NCBI GenBank assembly: GCA_963771275.1
Contig: CAVYSW010000009.1
Coordinates: 128,001 to 192,000, forward strand
Source of the DNA: an uncultured Gemmatimonadales bacterium
Lineage (GTDB): Bacteria; Gemmatimonadota; Gemmatimonadetes; Gemmatimonadales; GWC2-71-9
Direction of reading: 5' to 3'
DNA length: 64,000 nucleotides
Below are positions 17,764-32,950 of this stretch, piece by piece. The stretch's first letter is position 1, and every line of letters begins with the position of its first letter. The translations under genes and the position numbers were made by a program. Below the pieces are notes generated by a model that was not told the origin of the DNA, searched no databases, and was given only the letters and a program-made list of their open reading frames with translations.

Positions 17764-19869
17764 TCAGCGCCCGCCGAGCAGCTCGTCGGCGAGCGGGCCC
17801 GCGTTGTACACCTTGCGCAGGCCTTCGATGATGCCGCGCACGTCCACCCACACCGAGCGGCTCACCGCCTCGGTGAAGAGGAAGCGGTTCGGCAGCATCT
17901 CGATGTTCCCGTCGAAAATCAGGCCGACGATCTCGCCGTCACGGTTGACCACGGGACTGCCCGAGTTGCCGCCAATGATGTCGTTCGTGGAGACCGCATC
18001 GAGCGGCGTGGCCAGGTTGAGCTTCTCCCGCGCGTCGATCCAGCGGGACGTGAGGTTCCAGGGTTCCTGGCCCGCGAACCCGGCCCAGCGGTCGAACAGG
18101 CCATAGAACGTCGTGTACGGCGCGGCGTCGGTCCCGTTGTACGGGTAGCGCTTGATCTCGCCGTCCGAGATGCGGAGGCTGAACGTCGCGTCCGGCGCGA
18201 CCGAATTGCCGAACACGGCGAGCAGCGCGCGCGCGACGCGGGTGTCCTGCTGCGCCTCGCGATCCTGCAGGTCCGTCACCTTGGCGCTCATCTCGCGCTC
18301 CAGCGGCTCGATCACGCGGGCCAGCGCGATGAATGGGTCCGTCGAGGCGGCGATCGCCGCGGCGCCGCCGTTCACCAGCCGCCCGGCCTCACCCGCCTGT
18401 GTGAGCGACGTGCCCGCCACCATGGCCTGGGCCGCCGCCTCGGGCGTCCGGTTCCCCAGCACGGCGCGCCGGACGGGATCCGTCGCGGGAAGCCCGGCGG
18501 CCATTTGAGCGAAGTACGCGGCGAGCATCCGCTGCTCGAGCTCCTTGTCCACCGCCTCGAGCCCCCCGAGCGTCCGGTCGAGCATGCGCCGGCTGGCATC
18601 CCGGTAGATGCGCGCCCGCTCGCCGTCGGGCTTCGCCATCTCGATCGGGTAGCGCACGATGACGCCCGCCGCCGCCATCAGGCTGGAGCCGAAGGCGTTG
18701 AAGCCGTAGAACCGCCGCTTCACGTCCAGGGCGGCGAGATCACGGCGCATCTGCGCGATCAGGTCCCACGCGGAGCCATACTCCCCCTTGAGCTTGGGAT
18801 CCGCGTCCACCCTGGCGCGGAAGCTCTTCTCCCAGGCCTGCTTCTGCGCCATGAGCTTGGGGTCCAGCAGACCGGACTGGTAGCCCTTGGTGGCCTTCTG
18901 GCTGTTCTCCAGGCCGAACACCGTGTTGCGGAACGCCTTGGCGCGCTCGGGATCGGCGTTGCCGAGCTCGTGCAGCACCGCGATCTGCCGCGCGTACCCG
19001 TCGAGGGTCGCCGGGTACTGCACGTCGCGCAGGTACTCGAGCTGCGCCATCGTGTTCAGCCGTCCGGTCGACCCGGGGTTCCCGACCACGAAGACGAGGT
19101 CGTTCTCCTTCGAGCCGTTCGCGCTCCACCGGAAGTAGTCGGTGTGCACCGGCTGGCCGTTGTCGTAGGCGCGGTAGATGCTCAGGTCCAGGTCGTGGCG
19201 GGGGTACGTGAAGTTGTCCGGGTCGCCGCCGAAAAAGGCCGCCTGGCCCTCGGGCGCGAACACCAGCCGGACGTCGGTATAGCGCCGGAACGTGTAGAGC
19301 TTGAACTGCCCGCCGCGGTACATCGAGACGACCTGACAGTAGAGCCCCAGGCCGGTCGCGGCGCAGCGGTCCTGGATCGCGGTGATCGCCGTGGCGCGCA
19401 GATCGGCCGCCCGCGTGGGCGCGGCGGTCGCGGGCACCGCGGCGTTCACGCTGTCGGTGACGTCCCGGATCGACAACAGCTGGTCGAGCGTGAACCCCTG
19501 ACACGGCCGTTCCTCGTCGCGCGTCCGCGCGTAGAAGCCGTCCGACAGCAGGTCCTCGCCCTCGCGCGTCACGCCCTCGATGCAGCGCCGCGCGCAGTGG
19601 TGATTGGTCAGCACCAGTCCGTCCGCCGACACGAACGAGGCCGTGCAGCCGGGCTGGCGCAAGGCCGACATCCGGACGTGATCGAGCCACTGCGCCGACG
19701 GGCGGAAGTCGTAGCGCTTGGCCCAGTAGTCGAGCGGCGGCACGTCGAACGTCCACATCTTGCCGGTTTCAAGACCTGGATACTCGGTGCGCTGCTGCTG
19801 CGCCGCCACCGGGCGCGCCAGGACGAGCAGGAGCAGGACGCCGAAGAGCCGGGTTGGGAGACGCTTCAT
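17764..19869 (-). CDS. S46 family dipeptidyl-peptidase
   Basis: GKMWTF, GCTASFVSADGLVLTNHHC, FGGDPDNF, PDATFSLR, DIIGGNSGSP. Confidence 0.92.
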   Translation of the reverse strand: MKRLPTRLFGVLLLLVLARPVAAQQQRTEYPGLETGKMWTFDVPPLDYWAKRYDFRPSAQWLDHVRMSALRQPGCTASFVSADGLVLTNHHCARRCIEGVTREGEDLLSDGFYARTRDEERPCQGFTLDQLLSIRDVTDSVNAAVPATAAPTRAADLRATAITAIQDRCAATGLGLYCQVVSMYRGGQFKLYTFRRYTDVRLVFAPEGQAAFFGGDPDNFTYPRHDLDLSIYRAYDNGQPVHTDYFRWSANGSKENDLVFVVGNPGSTGRLNTMAQLEYLRDVQYPATLDGYARQIAVLHELGNADPERAKAFRNTVFGLENSQKATKGYQSGLLDPKLMAQKQAWEKSFRARVDADPKLKGEYGSAWDLIAQMRRDLAALDVKRRFYGFNAFGSSLMAAAGVIVRYPIEMAKPDGERARIYRDASRRMLDRTLGGLEAVDKELEQRMLAAYFAQMAAGLPATDPVRRAVLGNRTPEAAAQAMVAGTSLTQAGEAGRLVNGGAAAIAASTDPFIALARVIEPLEREMSAKVTDLQDREAQQDTRVARALLAVFGNSVAPDATFSLRISDGEIKRYPYNGTDAAPYTTFYGLFDRWAGFAGQEPWNLTSRWIDAREKLNLATPLDAVSTNDIIGGNSGSPVVNRDGEIVGLIFDGNIEMLPNRFLFTEAVSRSVWVDVRGIIEGLRKVYNAGPLADELLGGR

Positions 19870-19999
19870 GGGACTCTTCTCCGTCAGGAAGGGAAAGCGT
19901 AGGTTTTCACGTCAGGCCACTGAGGATCATGGCCCCAGCATATCAAGAGAATCGGTGGGACCGGCAAATACCAGGGGGTGGGAGCACGGGCGCGGCTGA

Positions 20000-20045
20000 C
20001 GGGGAACCGGGAACCGGGAAGCGGGAACCGGGGGCCGGGACCCGG
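20000..20045. repeat. Heptamer repeat GGGAACC
   Basis: Seen directly. Confidence 0.7.
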
Positions 20046-20049
20046 CTGC

Positions 20050-20680
20050 TGTGCGACGTCCACGGGCGGATCACACACGTCTGTCTCGCGCTGCCGACAT
20101 ACCAGTCCGAGACCGTGCCCCGCCTGCTCGTGGACGAGCGCCACGTGGTGCTGGGCCGCTCGGTCGGCACGGGACCGCCGGCGCGTACCGCGGCCCGGAC
20201 CCTGCGGCGCCTGTTCGCGCCCCCCGGTGGCCGGGCAGCGCCCGCACTGTTGCGCGTGCCGGCCCGCTCGCGCCAGCCCAGCTCCCACCAGGACCTCTAC
20301 CTCACGCTCGCGGCACAGCCCGGGGGCCGCCAGTCGCGGCCTCGAGCGCGTGGCCCGGACGATGGCGGCCGCGGGCTACGAGGTCGTGCGCCTGCCCTAC
20401 GCCACGACGCGGCTGCCAGAGGCGCGCAGGGACAGCGTGATCACGTACAACAACGCAATGGTCGAGGTGCGGCCGGGGGCGGGCGGGCGGACCGCGCGGC
20501 GCGTGATTCTCGCGCGGTGCGGTACGGACGGCGGGGCGGACATGGCGGCGTTGGACGACGCCGCCGGTGCGGTGTGGCGCAGCTGGGGTTCGACGTGTGC
20601 TTCGCGGAAGGACCGTTCACCTGGCTCGGCATCTTCGAGGGCAGCGTCCACTGCCTCACCAAGGTGCTCACGCGGGCCGA
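20050..20680 (+). pseudogene. Frameshifted pentein-fold (agmatine/peptidyl-arginine deiminase-like) remnant
   Basis: Motifs across two frames: SHQDLYL (20283), GYEVVRLP...ITYNNAMVE (20440), FEGSVHCLTKVL (catalytic HC at 20649); no start codon found. Confidence 0.55.
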
Positions 20681-20685
20681 ACCCG

Positions 20686-22743
20686 CTACAGCAGCACGTC
20701 GTTCCGGAGCAGCTTCCGGACCCCCCACCACACGGCACCCAGCAGATTCGAGCGGCGGACGGTGATGCGCGCCGGTCCGACGCCCCCGGGGCGGATCCCG
20801 GCCGCCCCGGCGGGGACCCGCACCCGCACCTCGAGGCCCGAGTCCGCCGCGCTTGCCGCCGCGACGGCCGTCACCGGCGCGTCGAGCCAGCGCCGCTCCC
20901 CCACCTCGGACAGGATCGCCGCACGCTGCCCAGCGCGCACCAGGGTGGCGCCCGCCCGCTCGAGCTGGATGCGGAGCTCCAGCGAATCGAGCGCCATCAG
21001 CCGCACCACGGGCTCGCCGGCGTCGTACCGGCGCCCGATCTGCTCCTCGATGCGCGGGCTCACCACGGTCGCGGCCGTGACCGCCCGCAAGGTGAGCGCC
21101 GCGATGCGGTCGGCCAGCACGTCCCGCCGTGCCGTGGCCTCGCCGAGCGCGCGGGCCGTCTGCTCCGCCTGATCGTACCGCCCCCGCGCCTGCGCCACCC
21201 GTACCTCCGCGGCAAGCGAGTCGGCCTGGCGGGCCGCCACGACGGACTCCCCCTCGAGCGCGAAGCTCCGCAGCCGGGCGACCGCCGCGCCGGCGGCCAC
21301 GCGCCCGCTCTCGCCCACGAATACCTGCTCGAGCACCGCGTCGTCGGGCGCGGCCAGGATCGTCTCGCGGGCCGGGCCGGCCGCGTAGCGCCCGGCGACG
21401 CGGATCGGCCAGGGCGTGAGGATCAGCGTCGCCAGGAGCGCCGCGGCGACCCCCGCGGTCCATCGCAGCCCGCGCCGCTCCCGCCACAGCGCGCGGTGCT
21501 CCCGCACCGTCATGACGAGGGCGCGGGCCCACTCGCGCACGCCGCTGCGGAGCAGCGCGCCGATCAGCAGCAGCGCGGCCAGTCCGCCGAGCGCGCCCAT
21601 CGTCCGATTGGCCCAGCCGAACACCGCGCCGGCGATGACGAACAGGATGGTCCCGATATACGCCAGGGACAGCGCGCCGTACACGAAGAACGCGCGCCGC
21701 TCGTAGGCGTCCGCCGGCGGCTCGGGCGTGTTGAGGCGCAGCACGTGCCGCTTGAGCGCCCAGGCGACGTGCCCCAGCGCCCGCTGTCGCAGGTTGGGGA
21801 TCTCGAGATAGTCGCTCAGCGCATAGTAGCCGTCGAGCGGGATCAGCGGGTTCGCGTTCATCAGCACCGTCGTGGCGCCGCCGATCAGCAGCGCCGCGAA
21901 CGCAATGCGCGACACGAGGCTCCCGGGATCCACCAGCACCCAGACGATGGCGGCGAGGCCGGCGATCACCAGCTGGATCCACGACCCCGCCGCCGTCACC
22001 CACAGCCGCTTGCGCAGCTCCGGAAAGGTCCAGGCATCATTCACGTTGCAGTAGAAGGCGGGCTCGAAGTAGATCAGCATCGCGCCCATCTCGTAGACCT
22101 GGCCGCCGAAGTACTTGCAGGTGAAGCCGTGGCCCAGCTCGTGGATCGCGATCACCACCATCCCGGTGCCCCAGAACACGGCGATGTTGGCGGGCGTGAA
22201 GAACTCGAGCGAGTACATCGCGCGCATACCCGCGAAGACCTGGCTGGCGTGGCCGACGAAGATGAGCCCGTAGACCACGAACAGCACGACCGACAGCACG
22301 AGGAACGGCGTCGAGAAGAACCACCGGAGGCGCGGCAGCCAGCGCGTGAAGAACCCGTCGGGGTCCCCCACGGAGAACCGCATGCGCAGCAGGCTGCCCT
22401 GATAGTGCGTGTTGCGTGCCCGCCGTGTGCGCTCGGCGCGCAGCCGCTCGAGCTCGAGCACCGATTTCTCGGCGAGCGACCGCTCCAGCAGCCCGAGCTG
22501 CCGCAGCCGCCGCGCGAACCCCTCCACCGCCGGCTGGGCGATCGGCATGCCCTGCGCGCGCAGGGCCGCCGCGACGTCGCCGCAGGTCGCGTCGCCGGTG
22601 AACTGCTGCATCACCAGCACCTCGAGCGGCTTGAACCGGAAGTACTTCCGGCTCACCGGGTCCTTCACGATGTAGGTGATCGCGCCGCGGTAGCGCTGCT
22701 CGACCAGGGACAGGTCGGACCGAAAGGCCGGGCGGGGCGGCAC
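20686..22743 (-). CDS. PqqD/RRE-like domain + M50 site-2 metalloprotease + HlyD-type membrane-fusion domain
   Basis: N-terminal YIVKDPVSRKYFRF...MQQFTG (wHTH-like), HELGH, NANPLIPLDGYY, C-terminal lipoyl-hairpin/coiled-coil; GTG start adjacent to the upstream stop. Confidence 0.85.
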   Translation of the reverse strand: MPPRPAFRSDLSLVEQRYRGAITYIVKDPVSRKYFRFKPLEVLVMQQFTGDATCGDVAAALRAQGMPIAQPAVEGFARRLRQLGLLERSLAEKSVLELERLRAERTRRARNTHYQGSLLRMRFSVGDPDGFFTRWLPRLRWFFSTPFLVLSVVLFVVYGLIFVGHASQVFAGMRAMYSLEFFTPANIAVFWGTGMVVIAIHELGHGFTCKYFGGQVYEMGAMLIYFEPAFYCNVNDAWTFPELRKRLWVTAAGSWIQLVIAGLAAIVWVLVDPGSLVSRIAFAALLIGGATTVLMNANPLIPLDGYYALSDYLEIPNLRQRALGHVAWALKRHVLRLNTPEPPADAYERRAFFVYGALSLAYIGTILFVIAGAVFGWANRTMGALGGLAALLLIGALLRSGVREWARALVMTVREHRALWRERRGLRWTAGVAAALLATLILTPWPIRVAGRYAAGPARETILAAPDDAVLEQVFVGESGRVAAGAAVARLRSFALEGESVVAARQADSLAAEVRVAQARGRYDQAEQTARALGEATARRDVLADRIAALTLRAVTAATVVSPRIEEQIGRRYDAGEPVVRLMALDSLELRIQLERAGATLVRAGQRAAILSEVGERRWLDAPVTAVAAASAADSGLEVRVRVPAGAAGIRPGGVGPARITVRRSNLLGAVWWGVRKLLRNDVLL

Positions 22744-22744
22744 G

Positions 22745-23707
22745 TCAGGGTCGGACGACGCGCTCGCCGGGGGCGAGCCCCTGCACCACCTCCACCATCC
22801 CACCCGCCAGGGTCGCGCCGAGCGTGACGCGCCGCAGCACGGGCCGGCCGTCCTCCCACACGAGCACCCGGTCGCCGTCGCGCACCGCCGCCGCCGGCAC
22901 GGCGAGCACGCGCCCCGGCTGGGCGCCGAGTCGCACTTCCACGCCCGCGCCCGGCCGCAGACCGGCGCGCGCGTCGAGCTGCAGCACGATCTCCCGCGTG
23001 CCGCTCGCCGGGTCGATCGCGGGAGACGCCCGGATCACCCGCGCCGCCACCTTGCTGCCGTCGAGCGCACGCACCTCCGCCGCGGCCCCCGTCGTCATGC
23101 CCTGCGCCGCCTGCTCCGGCACCTGCACCGCCACGAGGAGCGGCCCCATGGCGCTCACGCGGAGCAGCGTGTCGCCTTCCTGCACGAGCCGGCCGGGCCG
23201 CACCTGGCGCTGCGTCACCATCCCGTCGAACGGCGCCAGGACGCGGGTGAATTCGAACGCCCGGCGGGCGCGGCGCTGCGCGACGTCCGCCAGCCGGTAC
23301 GCGAGCGCCGCGCGCTCGGAATCCGCCGGCGACACCAGGTGGCCGTCGGCCAGCGCCTCGAGCCGCTCGAGGGTCCGTCGGGCGTTGGCGACGTTGGCCT
23401 CGGCCTCATCGACCGCGATCACCTGATCGGTGCTCTCGAGCCGCACGAGCGTGTCACCCGCCCGCACGCGGCTCCCCACGTCCACGTAGACCGATTCCAC
23501 CGCGCCGGTGGCGCGCGCGTGCACGACCGCATCGTGCTCCACGTACAGTTGCCCGCGCAGCGTGACCGGCAGCGTCACGCTGATGCTGTCCACCGCGACC
23601 AGGTTCTCCGGCGAGCCCGTCGCCGCGGGGAGCACCGTTTGGGCCCGCTCGCCGCAGGCGAACGCCCCGAGCAGCAGTCCCGGCAGGGCTGCGCGACGTC
23701 CGATCAT
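22745..23707 (-). CDS. RND/HlyD-type periplasmic adaptor (membrane fusion) lipoprotein
   Basis: Lipobox AFAC; VDVGSRVRAGDTLVRL, VLAPFDGMV, PAIDPASGT, LRPG, EVVQGLAPGERVV. Confidence 0.88.
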   Translation of the reverse strand: MIGRRAALPGLLLGAFACGERAQTVLPAATGSPENLVAVDSISVTLPVTLRGQLYVEHDAVVHARATGAVESVYVDVGSRVRAGDTLVRLESTDQVIAVDEAEANVANARRTLERLEALADGHLVSPADSERAALAYRLADVAQRRARRAFEFTRVLAPFDGMVTQRQVRPGRLVQEGDTLLRVSAMGPLLVAVQVPEQAAQGMTTGAAAEVRALDGSKVAARVIRASPAIDPASGTREIVLQLDARAGLRPGAGVEVRLGAQPGRVLAVPAAAVRDGDRVLVWEDGRPVLRRVTLGATLAGGMVEVVQGLAPGERVVRP

Positions 23708-25644
23708 GGCCACATCCTCCACCACAGCAGGCGGAGCCAGCGCACCGGCCCGCGCAGCACCCGCCCGAGCGTCGAGGCGGGCGCGGTGAGCACGCGCGCG
23801 TGGGCGACCATGCCCGGTCGCAGCGCGCCCTCCGGGTTGGGGACGACCGCCCGCACCGCGAACGCGACGTCGGGGGTCGCGTCGAGCGGCAGCGCCCCGA
23901 GGAACGTCACCCGGCCGTAGAACGTGCGTTGCGGCAGCGCGTCCACGCGCAGCCGGACCTCCTGCCCCAGGGCGACCCGCTCGACGTCGCGCTGGCTCAC
24001 CCCGAGATCGAGCTCGAGCGAATCGGTGCGCCCGATCACGAGCAACGAGTCGCCGGCCTCGGGCCGTCGCCCGATCAGCTCCTGCGGGCGCGCCGTCAGC
24101 ACCACGCCGGGCACCAGGCTCCGCACCGTCGCCGCGGCCACCTGCTCGTCGAGCAGGGCGCGCTCACGCCGCAGCGACGCGGCCCGGCCGCGCTGCAGCC
24201 GCTCGGTGGCGGCGTCGCCATGCGCCGCGGCCGCGGCGGCGAGCCGGTCGGCCACGTCCGCTTCCGCCCCCGTCGCTTCCGCAGCCCCGCGCAGCTCGAC
24301 GGTGCGCAGCTGCACGACGGGGTCGCCGCGCCGCACCATCTGCCCCTCGGCCACCAGCACCCGCTCCACCGAGCCGTCCACCAGGGGACGCACCACCACC
24401 CGATCCAGCGCGCGGAACGTCGGCGCGACCCCGACGACCCGGAGCGGCCAGCGAATCAGCGTGAGCGCGGCGAGCGCGAGGGCGGTCGCGGCCACGTACA
24501 CCTGGAGCCGGCGCCGCGGCAGGGCGAACACCGCGCGCTTGGCGCGGGCCACCTTGCCAAGGACGTCCACCAGCGGCACCTGCGCATACAGCTCGGCGTT
24601 GCGGGCGGCCACGGTCGTCTGGTTGGCCAGCACGCCGGCCAGCTCCCGCTGCGTCGCGCTCAGGAAGTCCGGCCGCTCGGCCTCGAAGATCAGCACCCCC
24701 AGCGTCCCCTGCTCGTCCCTGAGCGGCAGGTACAGCCCGCTCCGCGCGGCGTCCGCCGTGAGCCCGTCGCCGAACGCGCTCACGAACGCCCGGGCGTCGT
24801 CGGCCGTGGGGGCCCCGCCATCGGTGAGGTAGAACGGCTCGCCGCGCTCCACCGCCCACGTGCCCCGGCGTGCCAGCCGGCGCACCGCGTCGTCCTTGGG
24901 GTCCACCGCTTCCTGCCCCGCGATCGCCCGGATGTCGAGCCGGCCGTCGTGGTACAGACCGACCGCGCCGCGGTCGAACGGCAGGGCCTGCGTCGCCAGG
25001 TTCACCACCGAGCCCAGCACGCGGTCGAGGTCGAGCGTGGCGGTGATCTCCCGCGAGATCTCGAGCAACAGCGCCAGGTTGCGCGCGCGCTTCTCCGCCT
25101 GGTGCAACTGCGCGTTGCGCAGCGCCACGGCCGCGCTCTCGGCGAGCCCCTCCAGCAGCAGGCGGTCGTTCTCGTCGAAGATGCGCACGCCGCGCACCTT
25201 GTTGTTGACCTGGATCGAGCCGACGGTCTCCCCCTTGGCGACCATCGGCGCGGCCATCACCGTCGTCGTGATCATCGTGCTCGAGCGATCGAGCCGTGCC
25301 TGGAACCGCTCGTCCCGCATGGCGTCGGCCACGATCGTGCTGCGCTGCTTCCGCGCGACGTCGCCGACGAACCCGGTGCCGATCGGCGTCTCGCTGCCCA
25401 CGAGCTTGGCGCTCCCGGGCCCGAGCGCCAGCCGGCACGTGAGCACGTCGCCCTCGGCGATCCAGATGGATCCGCCCTGGGCGCCCAGGGCGTCGAGCAC
25501 GGTGTTGAACACCCGGGGCAACAGCTCGTCGAAGTCCAGCGAGCTGTTGAATTCCTGGCCGATGGCGCGCAGCAGGCGAAGTCGCTCGATTTCAGCGGTC
25601 AGATCGCCCAGGGCGTCCGTCGGGGGGAGGGGAGCCTCGTCCAT
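23704..25644 (-). CDS. Tandem GAF-GAF + TM + HlyD-type membrane-fusion protein
   Basis: Two GAF repeats (FNSSLDFDELL...VALRNAQLH; ITATLDLDRVL...VAARNAELY), TM helix, then VAEGQMVRRGDPV, LRPGMVAHARV. Confidence 0.88.
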   Translation of the reverse strand: MDEAPLPPTDALGDLTAEIERLRLLRAIGQEFNSSLDFDELLPRVFNTVLDALGAQGGSIWIAEGDVLTCRLALGPGSAKLVGSETPIGTGFVGDVARKQRSTIVADAMRDERFQARLDRSSTMITTTVMAAPMVAKGETVGSIQVNNKVRGVRIFDENDRLLLEGLAESAAVALRNAQLHQAEKRARNLALLLEISREITATLDLDRVLGSVVNLATQALPFDRGAVGLYHDGRLDIRAIAGQEAVDPKDDAVRRLARRGTWAVERGEPFYLTDGGAPTADDARAFVSAFGDGLTADAARSGLYLPLRDEQGTLGVLIFEAERPDFLSATQRELAGVLANQTTVAARNAELYAQVPLVDVLGKVARAKRAVFALPRRRLQVYVAATALALAALTLIRWPLRVVGVAPTFRALDRVVVRPLVDGSVERVLVAEGQMVRRGDPVVQLRTVELRGAAEATGAEADVADRLAAAAAAHGDAATERLQRGRAASLRRERALLDEQVAAATVRSLVPGVVLTARPQELIGRRPEAGDSLLVIGRTDSLELDLGVSQRDVERVALGQEVRLRVDALPQRTFYGRVTFLGALPLDATPDVAFAVRAVVPNPEGALRPGMVAHARVLTAPASTLGRVLRGPVRWLRLLWWRMWP

Positions 25645-25733
25645 CGCCGTTCAAGTGGTCGCCGGGTGGGGGCGGTGTCAAGCACCGCAGGTGACAGCCC
25701 GACGCCTCGCCCGTCCGCAGGCCCCCCAATAGA

Positions 25734-25766
25734 CGAATCCCCGCGGCGTGCGGCCGCGGGGATTCG
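25734..25766 (-). terminator. 14-bp GC stem-loop downstream of precursor A3 (attenuator or mRNA stabiliser)
   Basis: CGAATCCCCGCGGC-gtgcg-GCCGCGGGGATTCG perfect inverted repeat; no clear U-tract. Confidence 0.55.
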
Positions 25767-25789
25767 GATCCGGAGAGCGGGAGAGCCGC

Positions 25790-25945
25790 CTACTCCTGGA
25801 GGCGGATCAGCTTGCTCGGCGCGATGCGCTCTTCGAGCTCCTCCACCGACAGCTCCAGCACCTCGGCCTGCTTCCCCGTCGCCTGCTTGATCGCCTTCTT
25901 CTGATCCGCCGTCAGCGCCAGGCGGAACGTCCCCTTCTTCTCCAT
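25790..25945 (-). CDS. Putative precursor peptide A3 (51 aa, core SKLIRLQE)
   Basis: MEKKGTFRLALTADQKKAIKQATGKQAEVLELSVEELEERIAPSKLIRLQE; SD GAGGAGG. Confidence 0.88.
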   Translation of the reverse strand: MEKKGTFRLALTADQKKAIKQATGKQAEVLELSVEELEERIAPSKLIRLQE

Positions 25946-25985
25946 GACCCCTCCTCGGCAAGTGGCTCCACCACGGTGACCGTCC

Positions 25986-26040
25986 ACAATATCGGGAGCC
26001 GCCGTGAACGGGCCGTGAAACGACCTCGCCGGACCGTGAA
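25986..26040 (-). promoter_or_regulatory. Phased TTCACG direct repeats plus -10-like TATTGT
   Basis: CGTGAA on + at 26003, 26014, 26035 (periods 11 and 21); -10-like hexamer 11 nt beyond the proximal box. Confidence 0.65.
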
Positions 26041-26053
26041 ACACCGCCCCACG

Positions 26054-26800
26054 TCACCCCTCGGCGTCCAGGAAGTGCTCGAGGCCCAGCTCGGCAAGCA
26101 GCTGCGGGGCCTCGGTGACCACATGCCAGGTGCGCTCCTGCTCGTTGGCCGCCTCGACGCAGGCATCGAGGTGGCCCCGCTCGTAGGGCGGGAAGTCGCC
26201 GGCCCGCTCCTCCGGCTCCGCCGAGCGCACGGTCAGGGCCCGGGTGGGCCGCGCCGGATCCGCCCACAGCGCGGCACGCCCGCCCGGCGTGATCGAGCAG
26301 CCCGCGGCGTACCCGAACTCGATGCGACCGGTTCCCACCGTGTACGCGATGCCGAATGGGAAGGTGCGGCAGATCGTCGGCCGATGCTCCCAGATGGTGC
26401 AGCGGCGCTCCGCCGGATCGTAGTGCAGACAATGCCCATCCACCGAGCGCATCCGCGGCTGATCGCGCGACGACACCCGGAACGCCCCGCGGACGCTCGC
26501 CAGCAGGCCCGCCGCCCGCAGCCGCACCAGATCCAGGAGGTTGAGGCGGATGCCGGCGTCCGCCGCCCAGCCGGTGCAGCACACCTTGGCGCAGCGGTGC
26601 GGCTGGCAGCGAAACACCCCGTCCCGCCAGGCGCGCGTCACGGTGCGCTCGTCGTCCACCGGCGCCAGCGCCGGATGGGGCGGGACTCCGGCGCGGGACT
26701 CTACCCACCGGATGTACTCGTCGGGAGTGGTCGGGTCGGTCACTTGACGCCTTCCGGGGATGGCCGGCCGGAGCCGCGGGTCGATTGGTGAGCCGCTCAT
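26054..26800 (-). CDS. YkgJ/CxxCxxCC family cysteine-cluster (putative Fe-S) protein
   Basis: FRCQPHRCAKVCC...HCLHYDPAERRCTIWEHRPTICRTFPF. Confidence 0.85.
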   Translation of the reverse strand: MSGSPIDPRLRPAIPGRRQVTDPTTPDEYIRWVESRAGVPPHPALAPVDDERTVTRAWRDGVFRCQPHRCAKVCCTGWAADAGIRLNLLDLVRLRAAGLLASVRGAFRVSSRDQPRMRSVDGHCLHYDPAERRCTIWEHRPTICRTFPFGIAYTVGTGRIEFGYAAGCSITPGGRAALWADPARPTRALTVRSAEPEERAGDFPPYERGHLDACVEAANEQERTWHVVTEAPQLLAELGLEHFLDAEG

Positions 26801-26881
26801 GAACGCCTGAACAACACACCGGACGGTGCCGCCGCACAGCCTGCCCGCTGCGGCACCGTCCGGACGCGGCGGTGGCTGCGA

Positions 26882-27037
26882 CTACTTCAGGAACATCCTC
26901 GCGGGCGCGATCCGCTCTTCGAGCTCCTCGATCTTCAGCTCGAGCGCCTCGGCGTCCCTCCCGGTCGCGGTGCGGATCGCCTTCTTCTGCTCTTCCGTCA
27001 ACGTCAGGCGGAAGGTCCCTCCCTTTTTCGCCGGCAT
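26882..27037 (-). CDS. Putative precursor peptide A2 (51 aa, core ARMFLK); missing from the ORF track
   Basis: Manual translation MPAKKGGTFRLTLTEEQKKAIRTATGRDAEALELKIEELEERIAPARMFLK*; SD GGAGG. Confidence 0.88.
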   Translation of the reverse strand: MPAKKGGTFRLTLTEEQKKAIRTATGRDAEALELKIEELEERIAPARMFLK

Positions 27038-27070
27038 GGTGCTTCCTCCATGTGCTGGGGGTACGTGGGC

Positions 27071-27229
27071 TTAGAACTTGTCGAACAGCTTCGCGGGCGC
27101 GATCCGATCTTCCAGTTCCTCGATCTTCAGCTCGAGCGCCTCGGCGTCCTTCCCGGTCGCGCTGCGGATCGCCTTCTTCTGCTCTTCCGTCAGCGCCAGG
27201 CGGAAGGTGCCTCCCTTCTTCTGCGCCAT
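27071..27229 (-). CDS. Putative precursor peptide A1 (52 aa, core AKLFDKF)
   Basis: MAQKKGGTFRLALTEEQKKAIRSATGKDAEALELKIEELEDRIAPAKLFDKF; SD GAGGAGG. Confidence 0.88.
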   Translation of the reverse strand: MAQKKGGTFRLALTEEQKKAIRSATGKDAEALELKIEELEDRIAPAKLFDKF

Positions 27230-27267
27230 CCATCCTCCTCGTGGACATGGGCCCCTCGGGAACGGTC

Positions 27268-27323
27268 GCAATGTGTTCCGCAAGCGTGAAACCGGCGTGA
27301 ACGACTGCGCCGCGGCGCGTGAA
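27268..27323 (-). promoter_or_regulatory. Phased TTCACG direct repeats plus -10-like CATTGC
   Basis: CGTGAA on + at 27285, 27296, 27318 (periods 11 and 22); same geometry as 25986-26040. Confidence 0.65.
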
Positions 27324-27415
27324 ATACGCCAGGCGGATCGACCGGCCGGGCGACACTTGCCGGGCGGCCGGGCCGGGGTAGGTTAGACGGTGACCCACCC
27401 TGCGGGGCAACGCTG

Positions 27416-29650
27416 GTGCGCCTCACCCTGTTCGGGACCCTTCGGCTGGCGGAGCCTGGTGGCGCCGACCAGGAGCCCCGCCTGGGATCTAAGCCCATGG
27501 CGCTGCTGGCGTTCCTCGCCCTGGAGCCGGGGCTTCACCCGCGCGACGAGCTGGCGACCCTGTTCTGGTCCGACGCCCCCACGTCATCGGCGCGGGCGTC
27601 GTTGCGCCAGGCGCTGCGCGCGGTGCGATCCGCCGTCGGCGACCGGCTCGAGACGGACAATCGGTCCGTCCGCCTGCTCCCCGGACTCACCTGCGATGTC
27701 GCGGAGTTCCGCCGGTCGGTGGAGGAGAACCCGTCCGCCGCCCTGGAGTACGACGTCCCCCGGTTCCTCGCCGGCGTCTCCGTGCGGGGCGCGCCGGCCT
27801 TCGAGGAGTGGGCGGACACCACCAGAGCCGCCCTGCTCCGGCAGTACGCCAAGGCGCTGCGCAAGGCCGGCCGCCAGGCGTTGCGGCTTTCGCGATGGGC
27901 TGAAGGCGCTGCACTGGGCAGGCGATGGCTGAGCATCGAGCCGCTCTCCGCCGAGGCGGCGATCCTCACGGCGGAAGCGCATTTCATGGCGGGAGAGAAC
28001 GGGACCGCGCTGGCGGAGCTCACCGAGCACATGCGCCGGGTGCGCGTGGAGACGGGCGCGGAGCCGGACGGCTCGCTGCGCGCCTTGGCTGAGCGAATCG
28101 CAAAGGCCGGGCGCCACACCGGACGCCGTTCTTCCGAGACGGGGCTGGAACCCGCTTTCGAGACCTCCCTGGTCGGCCGGGAGACCGAGTGGCGCGCGGT
28201 GATGGACGCCTGGTCCGCCGTGACGCGCGGGGAAACGCGTGTCGTGCTGTTCGAGGGGGATCTCGGCATGGGCAAGACACGCCTGGCGGAGGAAGCGCTC
28301 CGCTGGGTCCGCGCGGCCGGCGCCACCGTACTTGATGGCCGGGGATACGATGCCGCCGCCGGGATCGCCTACGCGCCGATCGCCGACGCGCTGAATGACG
28401 CGCTCGACGCCCCGGGCCTGCCGGCGGTGTCCCCCGAATGGCTGGCCGAGGTGGCCCGGTTGCACCCCGGGATTCGCGACCGGTTTCCCGGCCTGCCCGC
28501 CCTGGCCGAGCCGGTCGAAACCGACCGCCGCTGGCGGTTGTTCGAAGCGGTGGCCCAGGTCATTCTCGGATTGGCCGCGGAGCGCCCCACGGCGGTCGCG
28601 ATCGATGATCTGGAGCTGTGCGACGCCGATTCGTGCGCCCTGCTGCAGTTCCTCGCGCAACGGGTCGACGCCGCCCCCGTGCTCTTCCTGTTCACCTCCA
28701 GTCCGGGCGAGGTGGAGCGCACGGCACCGACCGGCCGGCTGTGCCGCACGTTGCGCACCGCGGAGCGGGCGACCGTCGTGTCGCTCGGCGCGCTCGACGC
28801 CGGCGCCGTGTGGCGGCTGGTGCGCCAACTGGCCCGGATTACCGAGCCGGAGGGCGGCCGCCGGCTGGCGGAGCGGCTCCATGCCCTCACGGAGGGCAAC
28901 CCGTTCCACGTCGTCGAGCTGCTGAAGAGCCTGTTCGGGCAGGGGCTGCTGACCGTGGACGCCACCACCGGAGCGTGGCGCGTCGCGCCCGGCGCGACGG
29001 ACGACCTGGGCGGGGCCATCCCCCTGCCGCGGTCGGTTCAGGAAGCCGTGCAGGCCCGCTGCGCGGGGCTTCCCTACGAGCTGCGCGACCTGCTGGCGGT
29101 GGTCGCGGTGGCGGGCCGCCGCGCCTCCACCCATCTGATCTCCCACGTCCTCGGCATGTCACGCCTGCGGGCGGCGGCGCTGGCTGATTCGCTGGTGGAC
29201 CGCAGGCTGCTGGCGCAGGAAGGCGGCGGCTACCGCTGCGCGCACCCCGTGATTCAGGACGTGGTGCGCGCCGGCCTCACCCCCGCCCGCAGCCGGGAGA
29301 TGCACCGCGCGATCGCCTACGCCCTCGAGGAGCTGGCCGACCCGGCGGACGCGGGCGATGTCGCGCGCCACGCGGAGCAGGGCGGCGAGCGCGGGCTCGC
29401 CTACCAGGCCGCGCTGCGTACGGGGGCGGCCGCCGCGGCGCAGCTCGTTCCCGACGACGCCCTGGCCTGGTTCGAGTTCGCCGCCCGCGTCGCCCCGACG
29501 GCGGCAGAGGCCGAGGAGGCAAACCGCCGCGCCGCCGCAGTGGCGGGCGCGGACGCCGCCAAGCCGGCGCGGGCGCGGCGCAGGACGGGCACGCCGGCGC
29601 ACGGCCTGACGCGCCGCGACCTGGACCTCGGAGTCGGCCGGCGGGACTGA
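27416..29650 (+). CDS. SARP-like transcriptional regulator: wHTH + BTAD + AAA/STAND ATPase
   Basis: RLTLFG...ALLAFLAL...RDELATLFW...ARASLRQAL, AFEEW, LVGRETE, Walker A GDLGMGKT, Walker B VAIDD, TEGNPF. Confidence 0.9.
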   Translation: MRLTLFGTLRLAEPGGADQEPRLGSKPMALLAFLALEPGLHPRDELATLFWSDAPTSSARASLRQALRAVRSAVGDRLETDNRSVRLLPGLTCDVAEFRRSVEENPSAALEYDVPRFLAGVSVRGAPAFEEWADTTRAALLRQYAKALRKAGRQALRLSRWAEGAALGRRWLSIEPLSAEAAILTAEAHFMAGENGTALAELTEHMRRVRVETGAEPDGSLRALAERIAKAGRHTGRRSSETGLEPAFETSLVGRETEWRAVMDAWSAVTRGETRVVLFEGDLGMGKTRLAEEALRWVRAAGATVLDGRGYDAAAGIAYAPIADALNDALDAPGLPAVSPEWLAEVARLHPGIRDRFPGLPALAEPVETDRRWRLFEAVAQVILGLAAERPTAVAIDDLELCDADSCALLQFLAQRVDAAPVLFLFTSSPGEVERTAPTGRLCRTLRTAERATVVSLGALDAGAVWRLVRQLARITEPEGGRRLAERLHALTEGNPFHVVELLKSLFGQGLLTVDATTGAWRVAPGATDDLGGAIPLPRSVQEAVQARCAGLPYELRDLLAVVAVAGRRASTHLISHVLGMSRLRAAALADSLVDRRLLAQEGGGYRCAHPVIQDVVRAGLTPARSREMHRAIAYALEELADPADAGDVARHAEQGGERGLAYQAALRTGAAAAAQLVPDDALAWFEFAARVAPTAAEAEEANRRAAAVAGADAAKPARARRRTGTPAHGLTRRDLDLGVGRRD

Positions 29651-29688
29651 GCCCGGCGCGCGCCGCCCGACCCGGCCGGGACCTGCGG

Positions 29689-30123
29689 CTACTGCTTCGT
29701 GGCGGTGATGCTCAGCGTGGCGGCCTCGTCACCCGTGCCGAAGTCGAACTCGACATCCCCGCCCGTCAGCGTGACCGTATTGCCCGACAGGACGAACTGG
29801 AACTCAACGCTGAACGCCTGTCCCGTCTCTTGGAGCGTGAGCAAGTCCAGGCTCGCCGTCCAGGTGCCGGTCGTCGTATCCGGCGCGATCAGGGGCGCGG
29901 TCTGGATCGCCCTCCACGTGCTGTCGGCGGCGAACGTGATGCGGAAGGTGACCCCGAGCGTGATGGCGTCCACCTTCTCCGTCGTGTCGGCCACGCGCGT
30001 GAACTCCATCTTGGTGGCGTTCCACGTGCCGACGAATTCGTCCGTCGGGGGCGCTCCGCTGTCGCTGCACGCTGCCGCCGCAAGCACGAGTCCCGCGATC
30101 ACCATTCCCGCCGCGTTCCGCAT
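29689..30123 (-). CDS. Lipocalin-like beta-barrel lipoprotein
   Basis: Lipobox AAAC; FVGTWNAT motif; paralogue at 44698-45135. Confidence 0.75.
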   Translation of the reverse strand: MRNAAGMVIAGLVLAAAACSDSGAPPTDEFVGTWNATKMEFTRVADTTEKVDAITLGVTFRITFAADSTWRAIQTAPLIAPDTTTGTWTASLDLLTLQETGQAFSVEFQFVLSGNTVTLTGGDVEFDFGTGDEAATLSITATKQ

Positions 30124-30345
30124 GTCGTCTCCCGGTGTATCGACCGCGGTAAGATCGCCCGCGTGCGCTCAAGCAGCGGTGAATTGGACGTGAAGCGCGG
30201 CGTGAAGACCACCAGTGGGCCATAAGGGGAGGACCGGATCAGTGATTCGCCGGGGAGCGTGAAGAGCGCTTCAGGCCCCGTTCACGTCCCTGCCACCAGG
30301 CGCACCGTACCGTTCCCGTTCAGGGACGCTCTCGGACGGGGATCG

Positions 30346-30618
30346 ATGATCACAACCAGCATCACGGTCGAAGACGCCCGCTGGATCGGCGAGGAGCTGG
30401 GCGTCGACTGGGCGGTGGTGGGCGTCGACGAGTTTCGCCACGGCATGGAAGTGGAGCTGGAGCACGGACGGCGTCATCCTCTCACCAACGTCACCAACGA
30501 CGATCTGCTCATGACGGGGAAGATCGCGCTGGCGCACATCGTGGAGTTTCCGGACTACTACCAGCGCCTGGCCAAGATGGAGGCCGAGGCACAGGTGTAC
30601 TGGGCCCGCCGGAAGTAG
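30346..30618 (+). CDS. DUF5661-like small protein
   Basis: EFRHGMEVELEHG...TNVTNDD...TGKIALAH..EFPDYYQRL. Confidence 0.75.
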   Translation: MITTSITVEDARWIGEELGVDWAVVGVDEFRHGMEVELEHGRRHPLTNVTNDDLLMTGKIALAHIVEFPDYYQRLAKMEAEAQVYWARRK

Positions 30619-30631
30619 CGCGCGGCGCACC

Positions 30632-31312
30632 ATGGCGAAGCAGTACGTGTCCAATGCGGACGTCTCGGTGCGGATCTTCCAGAGCGACGTCCTGGAGTGG
30701 TTCAGCCATGTGCACCCCGCCGTGCCCCACGTCCTCTACTGGCCGGTCGTCGCGGTGATGCTGTGGCTCGGCGCGGCCCGCGGTGCGGCGCCGGGCCGCG
30801 TCGCGCTGCTGTTCGCCGCGGGTGCGCTGCTGTGGACCATCGCCGAGTATCTCGTCCATCGCTTCACGTTCCACGCCGGTCCGACGATCGAGGGCGACGT
30901 CCGCCAGATCGTCGCGGGACTCGCGCCCGGCGAGCCCGCGCTGCGGGCCATGCGCACGTTGCGGCAGAAGCAGTATTTCCTGGCGCACGGTGTGCACCAC
31001 GACTTCCCGAACGACACGGGGCGGCTCGTCATGCCACCGTCGGTGAGCATCCCGCTCGCCGTCGGGTTCTTTGCGCTGTTTCGCTGGGCGTTCGGCGCGG
31101 CCGACGGACCGGCCCTGTTCGCGGGCCTGGTGGCCGGGTATATCGCGTATGACACGATCCACTACGCGGTGCACCACTTCTCGCTGCGCGGCCCGATCCT
31201 GCTGTTCCTCAAGAAGCACCACTTTCGCCACCACTATCAGGATGCGACGAAGAACTTCGGCGTGAGCAGCCCCCTGTGGGATTTCGTCGCCGGCACGTTC
31301 AGTCGCGGATAG
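30632..31312 (+). CDS. Fatty acid hydroxylase/sterol desaturase family
   Basis: EYLVHRFTFH, HGVHHDFP, RLVMPP, YDTIHYAVHH, HHFRHHY, NFGVSSPLWD. Confidence 0.9.
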   Translation: MAKQYVSNADVSVRIFQSDVLEWFSHVHPAVPHVLYWPVVAVMLWLGAARGAAPGRVALLFAAGALLWTIAEYLVHRFTFHAGPTIEGDVRQIVAGLAPGEPALRAMRTLRQKQYFLAHGVHHDFPNDTGRLVMPPSVSIPLAVGFFALFRWAFGAADGPALFAGLVAGYIAYDTIHYAVHHFSLRGPILLFLKKHHFRHHYQDATKNFGVSSPLWDFVAGTFSRG

Positions 31313-31396
31313 CTCACCGGGGGAGTGCGGCGGCCCGACGTCGCCGGCGGCGCCCCCGCGTCATACCTTAGGACCTCCGGCCGAACGGAGCCACGG

Positions 31397-32950
31397 GTGC
31401 CGAACGCGTCGGATCGCCTCACGAGCGCGCTGGCCGACCGCTATACGATCGAGCGGGCGATCGGCCGGGGCGGGATGGCCACGGTGTATCTCGCCGAGGA
31501 CCGGCGGTATGGCCGCCAGGTCGCGGTGAAGGTCCTGAAGCCGGACCTGGCCGCCGCGGTCGGCCCCGAGCGGTTTCTTCGCGAGATCCGCATCACGGCG
31601 CAGCTCAACCACCCGCACATTCTGCCGCTGCTGGATTCGGGGGAGGCGGACGGATTCCTCTACTACGTGATGCCGTACGCGACCGGGGGCTCGCTGCGGG
31701 GGCTCCTGGGGCGGGACACGCCCGTCGAGCACCAGGTCATCCTCCAGGTCACCGCGCAGGTCGCCGCGGCGCTCGACCACGCGCACCGCCACGGCATCGT
31801 GCACCGCGACATCAAGCCAGAGAACATCCTGTTCTCCGAGGGGCTTGCCGTCGTCGCGGATTTCGGCATCGCCAAGGCCGTGGCCAGCGTGAGCGACGGC
31901 GGCCTCACCCGGAGCGGCTTCCCGCTCGGGACGCCCGGCTACATGAGTCCGGAGCAAGCCGCCGGGCTCACGTCGCTCGACCCGCGCACCGACGTGTTCG
32001 GCCTGGCGTGCGTCGTCTACGAGATGCTGGTCGGCGAGACGCCCGGCATGTGGCCGAGTGACGAGGCCCTCCGGGTGGGACGGTTCCTCGACGCGTCTCC
32101 CGCGCACCGCGAGCGGCTGGACGCCCTGCCAGGCCGCGTCGAGCAGACGCTGGTCCGCGCCCTGGCCATCCGGCCGGCCGATCGCTTCGCGACCCCCACG
32201 GCGTTCGCCGAGGCGCTGACCGCCGCGTTCGCCCGGGGTCCCGCGCTCCCCGATGCGGAGGTGAGCCGGTTGCTGCGGCGGGCCGCGGAGCTCGAAGTGG
32301 AGCATCCCACCAGAGAGGGCGCGCTGTCGATCGGCGGCGTCGAGCAGGTGGCGGCCGAGGTGGGCATCCCGCCGCTGCTGGTGCGCCAGGCCGCGCGGGA
32401 GCTGGTGCGACCGACCGCCCACGTCCCGGCGGAGCCGGCCACGCGTCGCCGCGGGTTCTTTCCGAGCAGGCTGGTCATCGAGCACATGGTCGCGGGGCGG
32501 ATCCCGGAGTCCGCGTACGAGAGCGTCGTGGAGGAGATCCAGCGCACGTTCGGGGTCGTGGGGATGGGGTCCACGCTCGGCCGCTCGCTCACCTGGACGG
32601 GCATGCCCGGGGGTGGCTCGGGCCGCGACGTGCGCATCGCCATCACGCCCGAGGGCGATGGGACGCGGATCCACATCGAGGAGCATCTCGAGCTGCGCGG
32701 CATCACCAAGGCGGCGCCCGGGCTTGGGGCGGCACTGGCCGGCGCGCTGGGCGCCGTGATCGCCGGTCTCCTGGGCGGGGGCGACGCTGCGGGGATCGGC
32801 ATGCTCGTCGGCATGGCGCTCGGCATTCCCGGAGCGATCCGGTTCATCCTGGTGACGCAGGAGATGCAGCGCCAACCGCAGCTCGAGGAGCTGGCCGAGC
32901 GGCTGGCGGCGCGGGCGGAGCGGGCGTTGCCGCCGGGGCGACAGGAGTAA
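31397..32950 (+). CDS. Ser/Thr protein kinase with C-terminal membrane-associated domain
   Basis: GRGGMATVYLA, VAVKVL, HRDIKPEN, DFG, GTPGYMSPEQ; two C-terminal TM helices. Confidence 0.92.
   Translation: MPNASDRLTSALADRYTIERAIGRGGMATVYLAEDRRYGRQVAVKVLKPDLAAAVGPERFLREIRITAQLNHPHILPLLDSGEADGFLYYVMPYATGGSLRGLLGRDTPVEHQVILQVTAQVAAALDHAHRHGIVHRDIKPENILFSEGLAVVADFGIAKAVASVSDGGLTRSGFPLGTPGYMSPEQAAGLTSLDPRTDVFGLACVVYEMLVGETPGMWPSDEALRVGRFLDASPAHRERLDALPGRVEQTLVRALAIRPADRFATPTAFAEALTAAFARGPALPDAEVSRLLRRAAELEVEHPTREGALSIGGVEQVAAEVGIPPLLVRQAARELVRPTAHVPAEPATRRRGFFPSRLVIEHMVAGRIPESAYESVVEEIQRTFGVVGMGSTLGRSLTWTGMPGGGSGRDVRIAITPEGDGTRIHIEEHLELRGITKAAPGLGAALAGALGAVIAGLLGGGDAAGIGMLVGMALGIPGAIRFILVTQEMQRQPQLEELAERLAARAERALPPGRQE

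Follow-up and report, generated by a model that had tools for sequence, protein, structure and literature searches.

Described systems and the Gemmatimonadales locus

In the daptides, a family of peptides made by ribosomes and modified after translation (RiPPs), an intramembrane site-2 protease (S2P) fused to a RiPP recognition element (RRE), MpaP/DapP, removes the leader of the precursor MpaA/DapA, and the conserved residues of that leader are E(-8), L(-7), D(-6), P(-5), M(-4), E(-3), and P(-1) (bioRxiv 10.1101/2023.03.08.531785). A second point of reference was identified in silico by Kamneva, Poudel, and Ward in 2015, who found a GAF / Peptidase_M50 / HlyD module beside secondary SecA_DEAD proteins and suggested that it makes up a secretion machine of type-I-like design whose membrane pore is the M50 protein (PMC4452313). 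A third is the epipeptide system, for which a review of RiPP proteases describes the M50 protease EpeP/YydH as thought to cleave and export the peptide (PMC10885120). The subject of this work is a candidate peptide system in a 64-kb stretch of DNA, referred to here as the window, from an uncultured Gemmatimonadales bacterium of soil with a genome of 3.86 Mb. On the minus strand lie, in this order, the precursor genes A1 and A2, a YkgJ-family gene, the precursor gene A3, and genes for a GAF-GAF-MFP protein, a stand-alone MFP protein, and an RRE-M50-MFP protease (MFP, membrane fusion protein); a BTAD-AAA_16 regulator is divergent on the plus strand. An earlier sequence-only reading had proposed this gene set, and both the genes and their strands were confirmed. 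We consider it reasonably probable that the locus encodes a system in which the leader guides the RRE-M50 protease to its cut and the product is then probably handed over through 3 adaptors to a TolC-type channel, all under an activator of the SARP type (Streptomyces antibiotic regulatory protein) with a regulon that is essentially the precursor genes.

The likeness to daptides lies in the RRE fused N-terminally to an S2P/M50 enzyme, in the presence of several precursors per cluster, and in the leader register, since EELEERIAP has E(-8), L(-7), E(-6), and P(-1) and so shares Glu(-8), Leu(-7), and Pro(-1). Because this is the register of a leader known to be removed by an RRE-S2P enzyme, we would place the cut after the Pro of EELEERIAP. 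The differences are more numerous. Unlike a daptide protease, the enzyme here stays under the 300-bit cut-off of the corresponding NCBIfam model, and it has a C-terminal MFP domain and 2 further MFP partners. The operon and its neighbors (17764-32950) hold no DapB, alcohol dehydrogenase/oxidative decarboxylase, aminotransferase, or methyltransferase. The precursors lack the C-terminal Thr: A1 to A3 end in F, K, and E, and across the family K, R, L, A, and P are the commonest C-termini, with Thr outside the ten commonest. The host phylum, moreover, is of the Gram-negative type and is neither Actinomycetota nor Bacillota. The statement of the sequence-only reading that the cluster matches no RiPP class therefore survives for the chemistry, there being no daptide enzyme and no C-terminal Thr, but not for the protease and the leader register, which are daptide-like; it is tempered further by the GAF/M50/HlyD machine already noted in 2015. 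Its observation that the cluster has no classical maturase stands.

The 2015 module shares with ours the GAF-HlyD, M50-HlyD, and HlyD proteins, sometimes an OEP gene, and the lack of an ABC transporter. Unlike that module, our locus has no secondary SecA_DEAD protein to accompany it, the one SecA_DEAD match in this genome being a housekeeping protein, encoded on a different contig in a frame of 1098 aa. The main text of PMC4452313 uses none of the words leader, cargo, and secreted, so that the tag, the RRE domain, and the small precursors do not appear to belong to that account. The likeness to EpeP is that of a membrane M50 protease beside a small peptide, with a weak second NCBIfam match to NF058609 (YydH/LiaK epipeptide protease); at 39.7 bits this is far below the cut-off of 225, there is no radical-SAM epimerase here, and EpeP has no MFP fusion. 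No paper was found on the LE-x-RIAP tag, its cargo, or these peptides, text searches on the motif having returned unrelated papers, and a Chem Rev review of tripartite systems contains no M50-linked adaptor in the part covered.

The operon has 3 MFP domains and no energized transporter of the ABC, RND, or MFS type; across the genome, 12 open frames together give 24 OEP-domain matches, and all of these frames are outside the window. Two better-known arrangements have the same general logic of conserved leader, cleavage, and variable C-terminal peptide. In the peptidase-containing ABC transporters (PCATs), which act on double-glycine leaders, the conserved leader guides a cut that is tied to the export of a C-terminal peptide of variable sequence, and in the Eep pheromone processing of Gram-positive bacteria an M50 protease releases signals of 7-8 residues. 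The locus differs from these in its recognition domain, its envelope, and the lack of an ATPase, and from PCATs also in protease family.

Precursors, protease, and regulon

When A1 to A3 are aligned, 29 leader columns are invariant, ending in EELE(E/D)RIAP, and the tails of 6-8 aa differ. A profile of these 3 peptides retrieved 2189 proteins of 28-91 aa at E<=0.01. Because the family is of this size and the gene order is repeated in 80 related loci, the precursor system is more than a chance arrangement, and the conserved leader together with hypervariable tails across the family bears out the idea of a conserved leader and a variable core. The family has no curated entry for any member, and no NCBIfam model matches any leader at E<=10. 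Many members are labeled "DUF1192" by JGI, a label that rests on a weak coiled-coil-like match, and an Atlas look-up puts the precursor in unnamed clusters. The same genome has 2 further, orphan precursor copies, on contigs C3 and C10.

Tail statistics were taken from 259 precursors, of which 257 have the motif. These 257 bear 246 different tails, with a median length of 8 aa and with 240 of the 246 at 13 residues or fewer; their commonest residues include R, P, K, G, A, and L, Cys and acidic residues are nearly missing, and the mean net charge is +2.2. A loose pattern is apparent, with A/M/S followed by K/T/R, L/V, F/T/G, and P. Since GC content at third codon positions (GC3) is alike in tails (0.86) and leaders (0.84), since 93 precursor pairs with identical leaders (last 40 residues) have a tail identity of just 27%, and since a random stop is expected only every ~52 codons on average at this GC composition, the tails are coded, held to a short length, and diversified.

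Some Gemmatimonadales loci have a second precursor type, found in 18 open reading frames (ORFs) between the usual precursor and the GAF-MFP gene, with a K/P/Q-rich leader (MSKHDEQ...VEELEEKIAP) and then 3-5 residues (MKQF, MKAF, MKI); examples are L015 (10158-10325), L017, L018, L019, L022, L024-L026, L035, L039, L042, L051, and L053, among others. Two members of the main family, P0027 and P0119, have, within one ORF, either part of the leader in duplicate or E(D/E)RIAP a second time, and may be two-core precursors.

The protease matches Peptidase M50 (PF02163) at 28.3 bits, above the cut-off of 27.2, and residues H202, E203, H206, N299, P300, D305, and G306, which make up HExxH and NP...DG, are invariant in 86 aligned protease sequences. 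The RRE-like domain that had been suspected on this protein is supported by the predicted structure. The model of the N-domain (pLDDT 81, and above 90 for residues 1-90) has a beta3-alpha3 fold by DSSP, with strands at 13-19, 22-29, and 34-38 and helices at 40-47, 55-64, and 71-84, and its best Foldseek matches in the PDB are the leader-bound RRE domains TbiB1, TfuB1, PqqD, TruD, and PbtF, at probability 1.00, with TM 0.60-0.75 on stand-alone RRE chains and E-values from 2.8e-3 upward. A model of residues 20-450, comprising N-domain and M50 domain (pLDDT 92), matches the same RRE domains as well as MjS2P and SpoIVFB, which are the top membrane structural matches, though weakly (E 0.02-0.05). 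The sequence profile alone gives as its four best PDB matches, again weakly, MjS2P, TbiB1, PqqD, and TfuB1. On these models the N-terminal domain folds as an RRE, and we propose that it binds the leader.

Conservation of the gene order was surveyed with one genome per species; from an alignment of 107 sequences, 102 relatives were confirmed and 80 loci kept, 78 of them from records titled Gemmatimonad- and the other 2 from metagenome-assembled genomes labeled Bacillota and Actinomycetota. The genes run from the regulator, on the opposite strand, through 1-3 precursors to GAF-MFP, MFP, and M50-MFP. BTAD was counted in 73 of the 80 loci, GAF in 74, MFP in 61, and the M50 N-region in 59, with the regulator divergent from the precursors in 73; genes are missing mostly where a contig ends, and a few of the loci consist of orphan copies of the precursor. 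It had been suggested that leaders be scored for co-occurrence with M50-MFP, GAF-MFP, and PF03692 genes: the GAF and M50 counts are in keeping with the expectation, but PF03692 is found in none of the 80. No maturase of any kind is conserved across these loci. By this comparison the conserved unit is a regulator, 1-3 precursors, and 3 adaptor proteins, without maturase and without pump. Within the phylum the precursor family is patchy, with 63 of 401 genomes and 24 of 147 genera positive (a tally that includes G084, flagged unpublished).

Two same-genus genomes, G001 and G002, have at the syntenic site, beside an S46 peptidase gene, nothing but an orphan precursor pair (L095 6757-7306; L094 ~9316-9833); regulator, YkgJ, and machinery are all absent there, and in G002-G004 the protease is on other contigs. 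Because those genomes keep only the precursor pair at this site, comparison suggests that the module is gained or lost by recombination at precursor genes. On the other flank, one BLAST cluster of co-oriented ORFs lies downstream of M50-MFP in 37 of the 43 Gemmatimonadales loci that have a downstream flank, and the single member that was scanned, L067 4999-9852, encodes a Ser/Thr kinase bearing PD40 beta-propeller repeats. Downstream of M50-MFP in the window this gene is lacking; the window's kinases, at 31325-32950 and from 32980, are on the opposite side.

The regulator was called SARP-like in the sequence-only reading, and this was borne out both by the BTAD match (27.2 bits against a cut-off of 22.1) and by direct repeats with 11-nt spacing in the promoters. 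Its Trans_reg_C match is weak (18.1 bits, below the cut-off), and no Pfam family is matched at E<=0.01 by the 315 aa at its C-terminus. The repeat TTCACG-N5-TTCACG is conserved in an alignment of 61 regulator-precursor intergenic regions. With one mismatch allowed, the window has 5 matches against 0.16 expected by chance; exact boxes number 5 in the whole genome, and the reversed control gives 0. Four of the 5 exact boxes are 45-70 nt upstream of precursor genes, namely A1, A3, and both orphans. If the regulator binds these boxes, as we predict, its regulon would be essentially the precursor genes. The fifth exact box (G000:C9:95429-95445, equivalent to L185 430-446) is outside the window, just after an MgtE-like gene and with no precursor nearby, and may be chance or another regulator target.

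Two hairpins interrupt the minus-strand run, one after A2 and one between A3 and the machinery genes. The latter is likely an attenuator or terminator. Since it folds far better than its shuffles (z -4.0), and since in 53 of 63 related loci the equivalent 110 nt after the precursors show strong structure (z<-2, with mononucleotide shuffles as control), attenuation between precursors and machinery is suggested. Both hairpins come from folding; a simple consensus scan of the region called neither a sigma-70 promoter nor a minus-strand terminator.

From these elements we infer the following mechanism. The BTAD-AAA regulator would bind the TTCACG-N5-TTCACG boxes and drive the precursor genes, and read-through of the hairpin would let it also drive the 3 machinery genes. 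The leader of ~45 residues, ending in EELEERIAP, would dock in the cytoplasm on the RRE domain of the intramembrane M50 metalloprotease, which would cut after the Pro and release an unmodified, mostly cationic tail of 6-8 residues. The MFP domain of the protease, the stand-alone MFP, and a GAF-gated MFP would form a periplasmic assembly without an ABC, RND, or MFS pump, and this assembly would pass the peptide to a TolC-type channel encoded elsewhere.

Several observations weigh against this picture. No outer-membrane factor was found in the window, and export without a pump would have no energy source. S2P enzymes usually cut membrane-embedded segments, and the leader here is hydrophilic. The structural matches are modest, every Foldseek E-value being above 1e-3, and the best NCBIfam match of the protease, NF041824 (daptide intramembrane metalloprotease), reaches 190 bits and thus falls short of its cut-off. 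As to the tails, positions 1-5 are semi-conserved, and some family members have tails of 3-5 residues only, which is short for a bioactive product and fits a tail start that merely completes the cleavage site.

Table 1. Features of the locus, with coordinates in the window
Feature	Position	Strand	Evidence and remarks
Precursor A1	27071..27229	-	52 aa; leader ...EELEDRIAP, tail AKLFDKF; E 9e-34 vs family profile
Precursor A2	26882..27037	-	51 aa; tail ARMFLK
Precursor A3	25790..25945	-	51 aa; tail SKLIRLQE
RRE + site-2 protease (M50) + MFP domains in a single protein	20686..22743	-	PF02163 28.3 bits; NF041824 190 bits
Stand-alone MFP/HlyD adaptor	22745..23707	-	RND_mfp 167 bits
Tandem-GAF cytoplasmic domain + one transmembrane helix + periplasmic MFP/HlyD domain	23704..25644	-	Domain scan
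BTAD/SARP-type regulator with AAA_16 (STAND-like) ATPase + 315-aa C-terminal region	27416..29650	+	AAA_16 75.9 bits; BTAD 27.2 bits
YkgJ-family Cys-cluster protein (PF03692)	26054..26800	-	Pfam 39.2 bits vs cut-off 23; E 1.1e-9
Direct repeat TTCACG-N5-TTCACG, 11-nt period, putative regulator box, upstream of A1	27285..27301	-	Exact match
Second TTCACG-N5-TTCACG box, upstream of A3	26003..26019	-	Exact match
14-bp GC-rich hairpin after A2, then UGUGUUGUU	26819..26863	-	z -1.6 for whole segment; 14/200 shuffles fold equally well
14-bp hairpin between A3 and machinery genes	25734..25766	-	z -4.0; 0/200 shuffles fold equally well

At the level of translation, A1, A2, and A3 alike have GGAGG-like ribosome-binding bases 4-8 nt 5' of the ATG. 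The proposed coupling of the last 3 genes held up: the MFP start ATG at 23707 overlaps the GAF-GAF-MFP stop TGA as ATGA, and M50-MFP most likely starts at GTG 22743, one base past the MFP stop codon, because homologue alignments begin at residues 22-27. The true start of YkgJ is probably GTG 26743, since its homologues are 229 aa long. The stand-alone MFP has a possible lipoprotein signal, to judge from a lipobox-like ...LLLGAFAC. A 373-nt contig of a near-identical strain spans the region from A2 to the YkgJ start. The left edge at 20050, as drawn previously, has no meaning for the system, since 19854-20765 (+) is the remnant of a gene outside it. This remnant, shortened and twice frame-shifted, derives from a conserved hypothetical gene of 505 aa, an intact copy of which is present in a same-genus genome (L095:7326-8843 (-)), and the remnant and the M50-MFP gene overlap at their 3' ends; neither copy has a Pfam family. 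For the 505-aa gene, which there sits beside the orphan precursor pair, a resemblance to guanidino-modifying enzymes was considered and dropped, the Pfam scan being empty.

Roles considered for the peptides

What the released tails might do is a separate question from how they are released. We favor a signal over a weapon, and we give a signalling role, tentative as it is, more weight than an antagonistic role or a cytoplasmic role without export, both of which we regard as improbable. Signalling is ranked first because of the regulon, the tail length, the lack of an immunity gene, and the sensory neighbors. In such a scheme, which the sequence-only reading had named as its alternative, the tails would be cell-cell signals: after their export the BTAD-STAND regulator would sense them, directly or indirectly, and would activate the precursor promoters in an autoinduction loop, comparable to RRNPP or SHP-Eep pheromone systems, though in a phylum of diderms. 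To our knowledge, no unmodified linear-peptide pheromone circuit has been described from any bacterium with an outer membrane. The recognizable sites of the regulator are nearly all at precursor genes, tails with a median of 8 aa and strain-to-strain hypervariability resemble peptide pheromones, the operon has no immunity gene, and sensory genes are found both beside distant relatives and in the form of the PD40-repeat kinase, which in the one example scanned represents the genes that follow the operon in 37 of 43 related loci. The scheme has its difficulties, however. A single regulator would have to serve as many as five different peptides in one genome, its C-terminal region yielded neither a TPR nor any other known peptide-binding domain, no importer is linked, and SARP control of the own cluster is equally typical of antibiotic clusters.

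The sequence-only reading had made the YkgJ-family protein the central enzyme, an Fe-S/Zn protein that would modify the short cores before M50 cleavage and export, as in a RiPP pathway. We now think this unlikely. It has in its favor the position of the gene between A2 and A3 and a pattern of recurrence. Among 400 further genomes of the family there is one homologue, in a different genus (G433), that is 48% identical and directly downstream of a precursor gene; and of nine metagenomic homologues, 66-85% identical, 5 match precursor clusters in longest-contig size (42952, 44716, 2595, 3809, and 1666 bases), and in each such pair there is an A3-like peptide with TGKQAE.LELSVEELEERIAP. Set against this, YkgJ is absent from all 80 related loci and from all 40 relatives, which include six same-genus genomes (71-89% complete), and because of these absences and the single occurrence in 400 family genomes the system must be able to work without it. 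Moreover, a hairpin separates YkgJ from A1-A2, the tails, nearly without Cys, offer no invariant residue to modify, and a literature search on YkgJ/PF03692 yielded no peptide modification among the titles listed; an Atlas look-up for YkgJ gave PF03692 clusters only. The idea that YkgJ is part of the conserved system is thus not sustained. From its distribution it appears to be a recurrent accessory of a small clade and not a core enzyme, with a tailoring role possible in this clade only.

It could also be supposed that nothing is exported, and that the M50 protein carries out regulated proteolysis of small cytoplasmic proteins, so that the 45-residue leader is the product, for example a partner of the regulator, and the tail a mere cap. 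S2P enzymes are the classic enzymes of regulated proteolysis, conservation is far higher in the leader than in the tail, and tails go down to 3-5 aa with first positions semi-conserved, as would be expected of P1'-P4' residues. The presence of 3 periplasmic adaptors, one of them fused to the protease, is hard to explain without transport, however, and in distant loci the same tag precedes proteins of 1,100-1,400 aa and multi-copy repeat cores (EETARANP-LALGA), from which it follows that the tag is the disposable part. We therefore hold this reading to be improbable.

Equally doubtful is a cocktail of short cationic, bacteriocin-like products with antimicrobial or antagonistic activity, which would fit the cationic tails with a hydrophobic center (x-K-L-F-P-K pattern), the several different peptides per locus with their orphan copies, and the Cys-rich cores of 26-29 aa in some distant relatives (L149), but for which 3-8 unmodified residues are very short where membrane activity is concerned and no immunity gene is conserved in the related or the scanned distant loci.

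Protease relatives and the LE-x-RIAP tag

The fused protease belongs to a large family, with 2,666 cluster representatives (50% identity) at E<=1e-30, most of them 680-820 aa and aligned from the N-domain through the MFP domain. Their source names are of the kind "putative peptide zinc metalloprotease protein" and "HlyD family...", and the organisms named include Blastocatellia and Candidatus Schekmanbacteria. We assembled a distant set of 80 metagenome loci with protease relatives, many of them ~27% identical to the query and many on short contigs. The GAF-MFP / MFP / M50-MFP trio is repeated in this set, with GAF in 26 of the 80. Among 76 ORFs scanned in 9 long distant loci there was no pump and no maturase; in one of the 9 an OEP gene adjoins the GAF-MFP gene. 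The sensory genes that flank these relatives are sigma-54 response regulators, histidine kinases, and Ser/Thr kinases.

The tag, written as LE-x-R-[IV]-[AST]-P, has 39 matches in 29 of the 80 distant loci, and the reversed motif has 1. Tagged cargo ranges from 4 to ~1,400 residues and includes G/N/P-rich tails of 30-50 aa, His/Gly/Ser/Lys repeats, and the Cys-rich cores already mentioned. A broader proposal, which we put forward as speculative and on balance doubtful, is that RRE-M50-MFP and its adaptors constitute an unrecognized, pump-less, tag-directed secretion route in many phyla, with LE-x-RIAP (or a KKLE...KP form described below) as cleavable export tag for cargo of 3 to >1,300 residues, and that in Gemmatimonadales this route has become a pheromone circuit under a SARP-STAND activator. 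The GAF/M50/HlyD module as such is known, in silico, from PMC4452313; the tag and its cargo are what would be new. If our reading of the locus holds, a large family annotated only as HlyD adaptors or "putative peptide zinc metalloprotease" would acquire a substrate signal and a testable mechanism, in which an intramembrane protease reads a leader via an RRE and is hard-wired to periplasmic adaptors instead of a pump. RRE-based recognition would then also be used outside the chemistry of post-translational modification, and the tag could predict the cargo of such machines in metagenomes. For Gemmatimonadota, a barely studied soil phylum, the gain would be >2,000 hypervariable short peptides with a dedicated regulator, as candidate signals or weapons.

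Among the distant loci are three tagged proteins of 1,100-1,400 aa beside adaptor/protease genes (L098:10904-15115, L099:5355-8705, and L100:1532-4831). They start with a basic stretch and LE(E/Q)RIAP, have no Sec-type signal, and gave no Pfam or NCBIfam match above curated cut-off. An N-terminal domain named "LEPR-XLL" was considered for such proteins and set aside, as nothing of the kind matched the tagged proteins or the leaders. Near other distant M50-MFP genes there are multi-core-looking precursors in which a leader is followed by 5-9 repeats (EETARANP-LALGA, APKALRAA, or TRPGAL), at L101 10359-11179 (-), L104 10387-10902 (-), L159 10211-10459 (-), and L110 6543-6773 (-); by analogy they recall multi-copy RiPP or pheromone precursors. 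Finally, some loci without the LE-x-RIAP tag (L120, L127, L132, and L134, which have sigma-54 response regulators as neighbors) carry small genes that converge on the protease gene from immediately downstream, with basic leaders containing KKLE...(K/A)P, as in MAKKTLKKSKKLEATKP..., and this basic leader may be a second flavor of the same tag.

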